This document shows positions 35,905-37,318 of a DNA stretch of 64,000 nucleotides, one piece after another. How positions within the stretch are numbered: the stretch's first letter is position 1; each line of letters starts with the position of its first letter. Source of the stretch: Candidatus Blautia faecigallinarum (GTDB taxonomy: Bacteria > Bacillota > Clostridia > Lachnospirales > Lachnospiraceae); NCBI GenBank assembly GCA_019116385.1, contig DXBU01000017.1, positions 2,930 to 66,929 on the forward strand, read 5' to 3'. The position numbers and the translations under genes were made by a program. The notes beneath the pieces are model-generated. The model was not told the origin of the DNA. It saw only the letters and a program-made list of their open reading frames with translations, and did not search any database.

Positions 35905-37182
35905 TCATGGTTTGAGCGCGGTAATGGGCACCACGCAAACGCCGTCTTCCCGTTGGTAGGCAGCGCTGCTCAGGCCGCAGATGACGCAGAGAAGGGAGGG
36001 CGGTACAGAGCCGTCCTCTTTTGCGATCTCATTTTTGATTGCCAGCAGATTCTCTGCAGCCTGATCGATCTGGTTGGCGCCAAGTTTGATCTCAAAAGCG
36101 CACCATTGTCCGCCGGGAAGTTCTATGACTGCATCCAGTTCCCGATTATTATAGTCTTGATAATGATAAAGCTTTCCACCGAAAGACTCTGCATAAATTT
36201 TTAAGTCGTGTTCGCAGAGTGCCTCAAAGAGGAAACCAAGGGTTTCCAGATCGCCCAACAGCATTTCCGGCGTGGCATTTAAAAGAGAACATGCCAGGGA
36301 AGGATCTGCGAAATGCCTTTTCTCGGCCTGCTTAACCCTTACGGAAGAGCGGATCTTAGAGGAAAATGGAGGCTGATTGTCAATGATGAACAGCCTGCTG
36401 AATATATCAAGATAAGAAGCAACGGTTTCTACATCGATATCCTCGTCATCTACGGATTTGATATCATTTTTCAGAGTACGATTGGTGGCGGTGGTACTTT
36501 CGTTTCGTGCAAGGGAACGGAGAAGCTGACGCATTTTTTCCGTATTGCGTTTGATGCCGTCTATGCGATAGGCATCATCGTCAATGATCGCGTTTAAATA
36601 TTCAGCGGGAAGAAGCGCCGCTTCTTTAAGAGGAAGATCCAGGCTTCCCGGCCATCCGCCCCGGATGATCTGTTCAATAAGCTGTTTTAAATCTACTTCT
36701 CCCGTCATAACAGGGGAAAGATTTCCCCTGCACAATTCCTCAAGAGAGATCTGCCCGGAGGAAGCACCGGTTTCGTATAAAGACATCGTATGCATCCGAA
36801 GTCTGGCAATCCTTCCGGCACCGCTGTGCAGGATGCCTTTATGATTGGGCGTGGCCGAACCGGTAAGGATAAACTGTCCCTTTTGGGGAGACTGATCCAC
36901 CTTGTAGCGTACAGCATCCCATAGAAGGGGGACTTCCTGCCATTCATCAATGAGGCGGGGAGACGGTCCTTCTAATACTGTGGATGGGGAAAGCTCAGCA
37001 AGTTTTCGGTTTTGAAAATTGCCGGCGGGATCGCCTATGAAGATACTGCTCTTGCTATGGTAAGACGAGGTCCATGTTTTTCCGCACCATTTTGGGCCTT
37101 CGATACAGACGGCTCCAAATGTGGATAAGTATTGTTCGACTTTGGGATCAATGATCCTTGAAAGATACTGTTGCTTTTTCAA
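35905..37182 (-). CDS. AAA ATPase with C-terminal DUF4143 / PD-(D/E)XK-like domain
   Basis: TTG start 8 nt after GAGGAGG. Walker A GPKWCGKT, Walker B LIDEWQ, ILTGS, and C-terminal ELDAVIE...FEIKLG. Confidence 0.88.
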   Translation of the reverse strand: MKKQQYLSRIIDPKVEQYLSTFGAVCIEGPKWCGKTWTSSYHSKSSIFIGDPAGNFQNRKLAELSPSTVLEGPSPRLIDEWQEVPLLWDAVRYKVDQSPQKGQFILTGSATPNHKGILHSGAGRIARLRMHTMSLYETGASSGQISLEELCRGNLSPVMTGEVDLKQLIEQIIRGGWPGSLDLPLKEAALLPAEYLNAIIDDDAYRIDGIKRNTEKMRQLLRSLARNESTTATNRTLKNDIKSVDDEDIDVETVASYLDIFSRLFIIDNQPPFSSKIRSSVRVKQAEKRHFADPSLACSLLNATPEMLLGDLETLGFLFEALCEHDLKIYAESFGGKLYHYQDYNNRELDAVIELPGGQWCAFEIKLGANQIDQAAENLLAIKNEIAKEDGSVPPSLLCVICGLSSAAYQREDGVCVVPITALKP

Positions 37183-37204
37183 AGTGTGCACCTCCTCATA
37201 CCTG

Positions 37205-37233
37205 ATTATAGCCCAATCCGATAGATTTTGCAA
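37205..37233 (-). promoter_or_regulatory. SigA promoter of the AAA/DUF4143 gene
   Basis: Minus strand TTGCAA (37233-37228), 17 bp, TATAAT (37210-37205). The -35 lies inside repeat unit 1. Confidence 0.7.
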
Positions 37234-37318
37234 TTCCAATCCGATGGATTTTGAGATTTCAACCCGATAGATTCTACAATTACAATCCGATAGATTTTGC
37301 AATTTCAATCCGATTAAT
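37214..37318. repeat. 23-bp tandem repeat array, four full copies and one partial (consensus CAATCCGATAGATTTTGCAATTN)
   Basis: Units start at 37214, 37237, 37260, 37283 and 37306: caatccgatagattttgcaattc / caatccgatggattttgagattt / caacccgatagattctacaatta / caatccgatagattttgcaattt / caatccgattaatttt. Confidence 0.93.

Follow-up and report, generated by a model that had tools for sequence, protein, structure and literature searches.

Plasmid iterons, such as those of P1 RepA, F RepE and pPS10 RepA, are tandem direct repeats of about 20 bp that adjoin the Rep gene, overlap its promoter and mediate autorepression, and the repeat sequence and the specificity of the Rep protein co-evolve. DnaA represses its own promoter through arrayed DnaA boxes, and the C proteins of restriction-modification systems are small, separate helix-turn-helix (HTH) dimers on palindromic C-boxes.

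The PDC-S01 family (AAA_14 plus DUF4143, COG1373) comprises an ATPase fused to a PD-(D/E)xK domain and is a defense candidate only, with copies counted in the tens of thousands in bacteria and archaea (PMC12988326). DUF4143 is a listed member of the PD-(D/E)xK superfamily (PMC3424549). PDC-S01 has been called the fourth most common defense system in prokaryotes, a designation that is unvalidated, and in a published test in E. coli B one representative was not listed with the four candidates found protective against T7, T5 or T4. The literature searched on this family covers domain content and abundance only, and contains neither an upstream repeat array nor autoregulation.

Here, we analyze a PDC-S01 gene and the 23-bp tandem array directly upstream of it, both located in a window of 64,000 nucleotides from Candidatus Blautia faecigallinarum. 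Because almost all sampled relatives have an array of their own and the repeat tracks the DNA-reading helix, it is most likely that the protein docks on its array and silences its own gene. Such a design, the self-repression of an ATPase-nuclease gene via its own 23-bp array, was not encountered in the literature searched.

The Gene, Its Product and Its Neighborhood

The gene occupies positions 35905..37182 of the window, including the stop codon, on the minus strand; it has a TTG start and encodes a protein of 425 amino acids. An earlier note on this DNA had correctly recognized both the gene and its array, while the strand had to be corrected to minus for both. Pfam identifies AAA_14 (PF13173) at residues 24-137 (2.1e-11, 44.4 bits against a cut-off of 27) and DUF4143 (PF13635) at residues 203-367 (5.7e-31, 107.9 bits against a cut-off of 28.1), and the PADLOC PDC-S01 profile PDLC04790 covers residues 5-423 of 425 (2.3e-59). 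An NCBIfam search with the protein gave no match and a PDB sequence search only marginal ones, the best with an E value of 0.017.

As the note had claimed, the ATPase motifs and a nuclease-like D...EIK C-terminus are intact, and they are kept across 80 homologues. Walker A (GPKWCGKT, residues 29-36; 37075..37098, minus strand) and Walker B (LIDE, residues 77-80) are invariant in this set, with G29, K31, W32, G34, K35, T36, D79 and E80 as the invariant positions. The PD-(D/E)xK motif D350 ... E364-I-K366 (36085..36135, minus strand) is assigned from homologue conservation and the fold elements of an AlphaFold2 model; D350 is invariant, and E364 and K366 are kept in at least 90% of the 80 homologues. 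In the model (pLDDT 92.4, pTM 0.92), the AAA+ core, lid and winged helix are followed by an extra nuclease domain. The predicted winged HTH (36307..36543, minus strand) consists of helices 214-226, 234-245 and 251-263 and a beta wing at 267-292, with helix 3 (residues 251-263; 36394..36432, minus strand) as the predicted recognition helix. Foldseek matches include the archaeal AAA+/winged-helix ATPases 2qen and 2fna and the Orc1/Cdc6-DNA complexes 2qby and 2v1u; the match to 2qby_B reaches a probability of 1.0, and the TM-scores to Orc1/Cdc6 are low (0.2-0.26).

The gene lies between a MarR and two-ABC-exporter operon upstream and a convergent XRE/DUF3796 pair plus a GH42 gene downstream. With such neighbors it constitutes a single-gene unit, in agreement with the note, which had placed it alone between unrelated operons. 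No defense island was found among the flanking genes examined. The locus is chromosomal, its synteny is kept in 23 assemblies, and the GC skew does not change sign there beyond the effect of gene orientation. The intergenic region that holds the array is limited distally by a terminator-like hairpin, GCTGTCCTGAATTTCAGGGCAGC followed by TTTTGTAT, read from the sequence at the end of the upstream ABC-exporter operon (37382..37411, minus strand). A simple scan missed this hairpin because its stem has a G-T pair and its T run is interrupted.

The Array and the Promoter

The array consists of five head-to-tail 23-bp units at 37205..37319 on the minus strand, as defined by Tandem Repeats Finder (TRF), by core matches at 23-bp spacing and by a self-match segment of 4.7 copies. 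TRF reports positions 37213-37321 with a period of 23, 4.7 copies, 80% matches and a score of 141, which makes the array the top-scoring repeat of the window by a wide margin. On the gene strand, units 1 to 5 occupy 37319-37297, 37296-37274, 37273-37251, 37250-37228 and 37227-37205. The array that the note had seen near the start codon is real, with five units by core matches and 4.7 by TRF; unit 5 is of full length and ends in the -10 box TATAAT. With the register adopted here, the unit consensus is AAAATCTATCGGATTGnAATTGC and the core ATCGGATTG corresponds to unit positions 8-16. The array is separated from the start codon by 30 nt when measured from the self-match segment, or by 22 nt when counted from the -10 box. 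In the 2.95-Mb genome, the 14-mer core AATCNATCGGATTG is confined to the array in the window, and a single match with one mismatch is found elsewhere.

A promoter scan confirmed the TTGCAA-N17-TATAAT promoter that had been proposed within the array (10/12 matches). The -35 box TTGCAA (37228..37233, minus strand) spans the junction of units 4 and 5, i.e., unit positions 20-23 plus 1-2, and the -10 box (37205..37210, minus strand) forms the tail of the last unit. Since both boxes are in register at unit position 20, the last core (37214-37222, minus strand) falls within the 17-bp promoter spacer. The ribosome-binding site GAGGAGGTG (37189..37197, minus strand) was read from the sequence 6 nt ahead of the TTG start. 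This geometry is common among homologous arrays: the -10 box begins at unit position 20 in 34/50 and the -35 box at position 20 of the preceding unit in 32/50, with a spacer of 17 in 61/84. The geometry favors autorepression. A factor bound in the spacer could also activate, as MerR-type regulators do, and the sign of the regulation is derived from geometry only.

Strains with a 100% identical protein, gathered by exact-protein look-up, carry 5 or 6 units, so that copy number does vary across strains as the note had suggested checking; the two promoter-proximal units are invariant among them. Metagenome contigs scanned with the exact pattern of the proximal unit and the leader gave 0 matches. 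The strain variants also bear on coding potential. The in-frame extension upstream of the start codon is open, yet among the strains that share the same protein some arrays are longer by an inserted 23 bp (or 22 bp), and because such an indel would throw the upstream extension out of frame, a coding reading is ruled out and the array is non-coding, as had been proposed. Likewise, the units abut directly without unique spacers, which rules out a CRISPR array and bears out the note on this point.

A structured RNA or riboswitch leader was also ruled out: an Rfam search gave nothing above noise (top match SraG, 19.8 bits against a gathering score of 50), the fold z-score is 0.07, and the array precedes the predicted -10 box. 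An IS21-type element (IstA/IstB) was rejected, as the module is without a transposase and the array is one-sided only. A true IS21 element with 24-bp terminal repeats is present on another contig (C64) of the same genome and looks different from the array.

The note had further emphasized an internal dyad, AATC-N5-GATT, in each unit. This dyad is perfect in three of the five units and one base off in the other two, and it is kept in only 8/51 and 2/22 related arrays. Any 4+4 dyad occurs in 13/51 related arrays, compared with 8.5 expected from shuffled units. The dyad was thus rejected as a recognition feature because it is not conserved in relatives.

Recurrence of the Array in Relatives

The array trait was demonstrated for homologues at 42-80% identity, i.e., for this subfamily. 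The strongest self-similarity lag upstream is exactly 23 bp in 72/77 genome homologues and in 70/73 independent metagenome homologues. TRF detects arrays upstream of 48/77 genome homologues, every one with a period of 23, compared with 0/69 far-upstream and 0/80 coding control regions; the enrichment that the note had predicted upstream of DUF4143 homologues is thus evident. In the genome itself, TRF arrays occur in 7/1351 upstream regions, two of which belong to DUF4143 paralogues.

Homologues with 52-77% identity are found across phyla and in archaea, and their distribution is patchy, with a close homologue in 5/41 related genomes. The homologous arrays comprise 3-7 units and are kept across phyla though no neighbor gene is conserved. 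Two archaeal homologues from Methanomassiliicoccales (L081 and L086) also have 23-bp arrays, with 4.7 and 5.1 copies, and for this reason the 23-bp period appears to be tied to the protein and not to sigma-70 geometry. The cores are clade-specific on a common frame, AAAATC-nnn-CNGAWTG, and have a single orientation relative to the gene; within each unit, conservation is highest in the core, which occupies the spacer, and lower in the hexamers.

The genome contains five DUF4143 genes. Two of them have different arrays: the window gene combines V-E with TCGG, and a paralogue on contig C54 combines A-D with ACCG, and both combinations fit the residue-to-core pairing described below. Among the more distant DUF4143 paralogues of the same genome, one is associated with a 32-bp period and two lack a clear array.

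Covariation Between Repeat and Protein

An unbiased mutual-information scan compared the core bases with all ~420 protein columns. For core base 9, the top column is residue 251 (1.15-1.22 bits, z 5.2); for core base 11, it is residue 252 (z 4.6), with residue 251 just behind. Residues 251-252, V-E in the window protein, are the first residues of helix 3 in the predicted winged helix (pLDDT 92). The repeat therefore co-varies with the protein clade, as the note had anticipated, and specifically with these two residues. V/A-E is paired with TCGG, x-N with ACTG and x-D with ACCG; this pairing persists between proteins that are up to 80% identical and recurs at several separate places in a tree built without those columns.

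In an out-of-sample test on 11 metagenome loci, the 4-base core was correctly called from the tripeptide 250-252 in 7/11 cases and from the nearest overall relative in 5/11; when these calls conflicted, the tripeptide was correct in 2 cases and the relative in 0, a comparison that comprises these 11 cases only. Tree-corrected covariation is not significant (p at least 0.25), with 4-6 independent pairs on well-supported branches, nearly all of which point in the same direction. Because the tree-corrected test is underpowered, weight is put on the column ranking and on the small out-of-sample test. Residue 185, which is outside the winged helix, also scores high and thereby reveals some phylogenetic carry-over in the mutual-information scan. 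A code in which one residue specifies one base (at base 11, E to G, N to T and D to C) was discarded as too simple, as the metagenome loci contain exceptions: G-E and E-E occur with ACCG, V-N with TCGG and G-N with ACCG.

Proposed Mechanism of Self-Repression

The array probably serves the protein encoded directly downstream as its cognate operator or docking site, and the gene would be under negative autoregulation. The note had proposed that an iteron-like array and its cognate ATPase form one unit, which is supported by the enrichment of arrays, the covariation, the variation in copy number and the module found in Collinsella. From these patterns we infer binding of the protein to the array, cooperative oligomerization, and the sign and purpose of the regulation.

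In the proposed mechanism, each protomer would read one 9-bp core (positions 8-16) via the N-terminus of its recognition helix, i.e., residues 250-252 and their neighbors. The AAA+ domains would join the protomers head to tail, which would generate the 23-bp pitch and allow 3-7 protomers to bind cooperatively. With the -35 and -10 boxes located within the linkers of the last two units, the last core would be placed in the promoter spacer, and an occupied array would shut out RNA polymerase, such that the gene represses itself. Self-repression may hold a potentially dangerous nuclease at a low and fixed level, also right after horizontal transfer, and the divergent cores may insulate the paralogues within one cell. 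If a protein whose nuclease site is intact occupies its own promoter, self-cleavage must somehow be prevented, for which this mechanism does not account.

A different emphasis, which we consider unlikely, is that the array mainly serves as a platform for assembly and storage, on which the ATPase-nuclease polymerizes in an inactive form along the 23-bp strip until foreign DNA or an infection cue frees or activates it, with self-repression as a side effect. The data behind the predicted binding, namely the 23-bp arrays, the covariation and the register, apply to this reading too, and 3-7 units exceed what occlusion of a promoter needs, with the distal units kept and their number variable. The nuclease motif is conserved, the fold neighbors include proteins of the STAND/NLR and Orc1 types, which function as oligomers, and PADLOC lists the family as a defense candidate. 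However, the published PDC-S01 representative was not among the protecting candidates, the window gene is outside any defense island and its role in defense is only a database label, and the strict promoter register is more simply explained by regulation.

More speculatively, and with a similarly small chance of being correct as a whole, PDC-S01 genes could be autonomous one-gene cassettes, each with a private 23-bp address strip that is read by a partly decodable code between residues 250-252 and bases 9-12. The strip would nucleate an inactive, ATP-dependent, Orc1-like helical nuclease oligomer, and the protein-site pair would also determine where the module transferred between genomes begins and ends, namely at the array edge and the stop codon. 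Were this the case, the abundant family would be a source of numerous protein-operator pairs that are orthogonal to one another, and of a new principle by which a nuclease is restrained or licensed.

Transfer of the Array and the Gene

In Collinsella, loci in different contexts share homology from ~117 bp upstream of the start, which is the array edge, to the stop codon, and this shared module contains no second gene; array and gene behave there as one transferable module. The module limits were taken from Collinsella because the genus of the window offered no clean empty site: orthologues of the upstream ABC exporter were found in four species, and the downstream content differs each time. 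In a Collinsella plasmid, an HTH gene is located upstream.

The array might also consist of iterons, or form a cis site through which a small selfish cassette replicates or moves, with the Orc1-like ATPase-nuclease as initiator or mover. The direct repeats are iteron-like and adjoin an AAA+/winged-helix gene with Orc1/Cdc6-like fold matches, the phyletic distribution is patchy, homologues with 52-77% identity occur across phyla and in archaea, and the limits of the module coincide exactly with the array edge and stop codon. In addition, COG1373 is among the listed genes that gut genera share through horizontal transfer (PMC10782964). Nonetheless, we regard this role as very improbable. The window gene is chromosomal, ordinary operons surround it and its synteny is conserved. 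Few plasmid records (9 of 72,556) and few phage records (4 of 50,697) contain homologues. The gene is flanked by neither a second array nor an inverted copy, and the Collinsella junctions show no target-site duplication. Furthermore, the GC skew does not turn at the locus, and five paralogues per genome would imply five extra origins.

When 2.9 million viral contigs were searched for exact matches to two window-type cores 23 bp apart, no phage target with the same array was found; the single contig that matched the paired cores did so inside a coding region and was dismissed as chance.

An array without a dedicated reader, produced by replication slippage that reiterates the promoter or bound by another regulator such as the neighboring XRE protein, would agree with 23 bp being the 6 + 17 bp start-to-start distance from -35 to -10, with unit tails that resemble a -35 box, with units gained and lost among strains, and with the XRE gene adjoining the locus and the HTH gene upstream in the Collinsella plasmid, but it is scarcely credible given that the core in the spacer is better conserved than the hexamers, that archaeal homologues hold the 23-bp period without sigma-70 promoters, that changes in the core go together with residues 251-252 of the protein encoded downstream, that the shared Collinsella module is without a second gene, and that the arrays persist across phyla with no neighbor conserved.

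Significance and Comparison with Known Systems

A cis element that tracks the recognition helix offers the first concrete handle on PDC-S01, as it supplies a candidate DNA ligand for binding, footprinting and structural studies, with residues 250-252 as the predicted specificity determinant. Private arrays may explain how paralogues coexist in one cell without cross-talk. If the predicted binding is true, PDC-S01 would represent a large natural set of orthogonal repressor-operator pairs. At the same time, database labels alone are insufficient to read PDC-S01 as a defense system.

The window gene resembles the described PDC-S01 systems in having both domains, a full-length profile match and a single-gene layout. 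Among the systems with arrayed sites, it shares with plasmid iterons the five direct repeats directly upstream of the gene, the 23-bp length being within the iteron range of about 17-23 bp, as well as the overlap with the promoter, the co-variation of repeat and protein and the proposed autorepression. Unlike in plasmid iterons, an AAA+/winged-helix/nuclease protein takes the place of a WH1-WH2 Rep. The locus is chromosomal, plasmids rarely contain homologues and the GC skew does not turn; moreover, the period of such arrays is constant at 23 bp in both bacteria and archaea.

Orc1/Cdc6 and DnaA also combine an AAA+ module with a subsequent DNA-reading HTH, as predicted for the window protein, and have arrayed sites beside the protein's own gene. 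Different from Orc1/Cdc6, the window protein contains an extra PD-(D/E)xK domain, and the TM-scores are low. The window-type sites also differ from those of Orc1/Cdc6 and DnaA by being strictly head to tail with the promoter in register, and by the many family paralogues per genome, each with a private sequence.

Finally, as in the case of C proteins and C-boxes, a putative nuclease module would carry its own operator and limit its own expression, which matters after transfer to a new host. In contrast to those systems, regulator and nuclease would here be one polypeptide acting on 3-7 direct repeats.

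Array and promoter of the window gene

The window gene (35905-37182, minus strand) encodes a 425 amino acid long protein with the Pfam domains AAA_14 and DUF4143, which is matched across its full length by the profile of the PADLOC phage-defence candidate PDC-S01. A gap of 219 bp separates the minus-strand TTG start of the window gene (37182) from the stop codon at 37402 of an ABC-exporter gene. In gene direction, this gap contains a terminator-like hairpin, approximately 60 bp of unique sequence and five head-to-tail 23-bp units (37319-37205, minus strand), which were identified by sequence reading and by Tandem Repeats Finder (TRF). 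The array is the top-scoring tandem repeat of the window (period 23, 4.7 copies, score 141). Its cores, AAT(C/T)nATCGG(A/G)TTG, are spaced exactly 23 bp and are confined to the array within the 2.95-Mb assembly, save one match with one mismatch. A promoter scan located a TTGCAA-17-TATAAT promoter in the last two units, followed by the ribosome site GAGGAGGTG and the TTG start. This confirms the tandem array that an earlier note had placed across the promoter of a standalone gene, and the neighbours are indeed unrelated on both sides: one flank carries a MarR and two-ABC-exporter operon, the other a GH42 gene and the convergent XRE/DUF3796 pair.

Two further features of the locus are kept in all strain variants. 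A direct repeat, GCTTTTGTATAAA, is present in two copies 17 bp apart (37355-37390, minus strand) between the terminator hairpin of the ABC operon and the array. On the other side, a DUF3796 membrane-protein gene is followed after 1 nt by a 68 amino acid XRE-type HTH gene (35005-35869); this duo is a recurrent two-gene pair and convergent with the ATPase gene.

A sequence search with the window protein detected no homologue of solved structure. With an alignment of 80 sequences as input, AlphaFold2 gave a confident model (pLDDT 92.4, pTM 0.92). Its predicted parts are an AAA+ core and helical lid, a winged helix-turn-helix made up of helices 214-226, 234-245 and 251-263 plus a wing, and a PD-(D/E)xK domain. 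D350, E364 and K366 are conserved in the latter, in line with the nuclease-like C-terminus proposed before. Among solved folds, 2qen and 2fna, two archaeal AAA+/winged-helix ATPases, are closest, followed by Orc1/Cdc6 on origin DNA, MalT and STAND/NLR proteins.

Arrays across the family

Eighty homologous loci (43-80% identity) were fetched from genomes of Bacillota, Bacteroidota, Spirochaetota, Actinomycetota, Fibrobacterota, Mycoplasmatota and Methanomassiliicoccales archaea. In the 200 bp preceding the start, a lag of 23 gave the strongest self-similarity in 72 of the 77 usable loci, and in 70/73 of an independent second set from metagenome contigs. TRF detected an array in 48/77 loci, with a period of 23 in every one, and none in control stretches from the same loci (0/69 far-upstream, 0/80 coding). 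Arrays contain 1.7-7.7 copies (median approximately 3.3). In the genome of the window, only 7 of 1351 long-ORF upstream regions carry arrays with a period of 15-40; two of these lie ahead of DUF4143 paralogues, and another is the end of an IS21 element. The enrichment upstream of homologues that the earlier note had set as a check is thus borne out and, judged from sequence comparison, the arrays are a family trait and not a local accident. In genome G014 (contig C1, 2595-2800, minus strand), an internal deletion after approximately 12 codons and a TGA stop disrupt a 42%-identical homologue, but its 23-bp array with GCCAAAATGCCGAAAA cores is retained, indicating that the array can outlive the gene.

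When the arrays were aligned to a common register, in which the window consensus AAAATCTATCGGATTGnAATTGC defines positions 1-23, the best -10 box begins at unit position 20 in 34/50 loci and the -35 box at position 20 of the previous unit in 32/50; 61 of 84 promoters have a 17-bp spacer. The last core (positions 8-16) therefore sits within the promoter spacer, and any factor binding at this site would collide with RNA polymerase.

Repeat sequence and predicted recognition helix

The cores share the frame AAAATC-nnn-C-N-G-A-W-T-G and vary at few positions in a clade-specific manner (TCGGATTG, ACTGAATG, ACCGAATG, TCGGAATG, TCGAATTG, GGGTCAAT, TGCTCA, TTCGGAAGT, GGTTAAA). Mutual information was computed between every protein column and each variable unit position. 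Residue 251 was the top column for base 9 (z 5.2); for base 11, residue 252 came first (z 4.6), followed by 185 and 251 (z 4.3 each); and for base 14, the top columns were 252 and 262. In the model, residues 251-252 form the start of helix 3, and it is there that winged-helix proteins usually read bases. The co-variation of repeat and protein that the earlier note had set as a check was found, with 251-252 among the top columns, but the residue-to-base rule has exceptions, a tree-corrected pair test did not reach significance because supported pairs were too few, and the high value of residue 185 is a sign of phylogenetic carry-over. Two homologues with x-N at residues 251-252 and ACTG cores (L018, L088) are 80% identical to the window protein (V-E, TCGG), and on a tree from which the covarying columns were left out, the E/TCGG state turns up separately in seven or more places. 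In a small out-of-sample test, the tripeptide 250-252 predicted the four-base core in 7 of 11 metagenome loci, and the nearest overall relative did so in 5/11, and both decidable disagreements went to the tripeptide. Direct readout of the core by helix 3 is well supported but not proven.

Paralogues and other repeats

The genome of the window contains five DUF4143 genes. The closest paralogue (contig C54, 424 amino acids, 42% identical) is preceded by its own 23-bp array (C54, approximately 62000-62105; locus L017, 1390-1497) with 3.7 copies of GCCAAATCACCGAAAAATAAT, a sequence unlike that of the window array; the C54 array runs up to a -10 box of sequence TATGAT. With A-D as helix residues, this paralogue fits the ACCG class; thus, one cell harbours two related systems whose addresses differ. 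The paralogues on C73, C163 and C132 belong to the more distant 'GARQVGKT' subfamily. On C73 (approximately 8100-8277), the array has a 32-bp period (2.6 copies, AAAAATGTG cores), and no clear array precedes the genes on C163 and C132; the 23-bp rule is thus specific to a subfamily.

On contig C64 (minus strand), 3.7 copies of a 24-bp repeat, GTAAGCACTTTTTTACATGGCACA, lie approximately 260 bp ahead of an IS21-family (IstA-like) transposase ORF starting at 811 of the reversed contig; these are probably the multiple terminal transposase-binding repeats of the element, an ordinary feature. In a sister species (L120; G013, contig C58, approximately 1200-1620), a long repeat array with inverted motifs TACGGCTATTTTT...CATCCGTAAA in each repeat follows the orthologous ABC-exporter gene. 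No DUF4143 gene and no XRE pair were found on the same contig.

Strain variation and distribution

Public assemblies contain the exact window protein in 41 blocks, flanked by the same neighbours. Most contigs read carry five units (the window, L124 and 16 similar places); with an identical protein, L123 has one extra 23-bp unit and the long-read contig L125 an extra 22 bp. The two promoter-proximal units are invariant. Three Collinsella loci have 90% identical DNA in common. In L095, the shared stretch is limited to the part between the distal array edge, approximately 117 bp ahead of the start, and the stop codon, and the flanks are unrelated. Array and gene hence form a unit recurring in different contexts, which supports the core of the earlier proposal that array and cognate ATPase belong together. 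Close homologues are patchy among relatives (5/41 genomes), and plasmid or phage records rarely contain one (9 and 4 records, respectively). On the Collinsella aerofaciens putative 23-kb plasmid NZ_CP048434.1 (4027-5649), a 44%-identical homologue immediately follows the gene of a small HTH regulator and adjoins an IS21 copy; a Rep gene is not listed for it in the incomplete PLSDB gene table.

Proposed mechanism and alternatives

The array is most likely a cognate operator, which is the simplest mechanism fitting all the data. One protomer would bind per unit, the AAA+ module would join protomers head to tail, binding would be cooperative and the last protomer would occlude the promoter. A nuclease-bearing, horizontally mobile gene would thereby be autoregulated, presumably negatively, and divergent cores would insulate paralogues from one another.

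Less probably, the array could be a docking or licensing platform for the protein. It could also consist of iterons or represent a mobility site, but no sign of an origin is seen in the GC skew at the locus. A reiterated promoter, or the site of another regulator, is a further possibility: 23 also equals 6 + 17, the bacterial promoter geometry, but the archaeal homologues L081 and L086 retain the 23-bp period, so that it belongs to the protein-DNA pair and not to this geometry. A structured RNA was ruled out by Rfam and fold tests, CRISPR was rejected because the units abut without spacers, and translation is ruled out since strain variants differ by 23 bp or 22 bp, so that the array is neither coding nor CRISPR, as first noted.

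Comparison with known systems

The window protein is a member of PDC-S01/COG1373. The publications found on DUF4143 and PDC-S01 cover domain content, abundance and horizontal transfer, and upstream repeats are not mentioned in the literature searched; in a published challenge test, four candidates were protective and PDC-S01 was not one of them. Closest by function are the autoregulation of Rep by iterons, DnaA or Orc1 with arrayed boxes, and the C-protein control of restriction-modification systems. By their defining features, the window locus does not qualify as a Rep-iteron origin, a CRISPR array or an IS21 element. It is one clear member of a family-wide, apparently unpublished design, which would provide an abundant, mechanistically blank family with a native DNA ligand as well as a predicted determinant of specificity.
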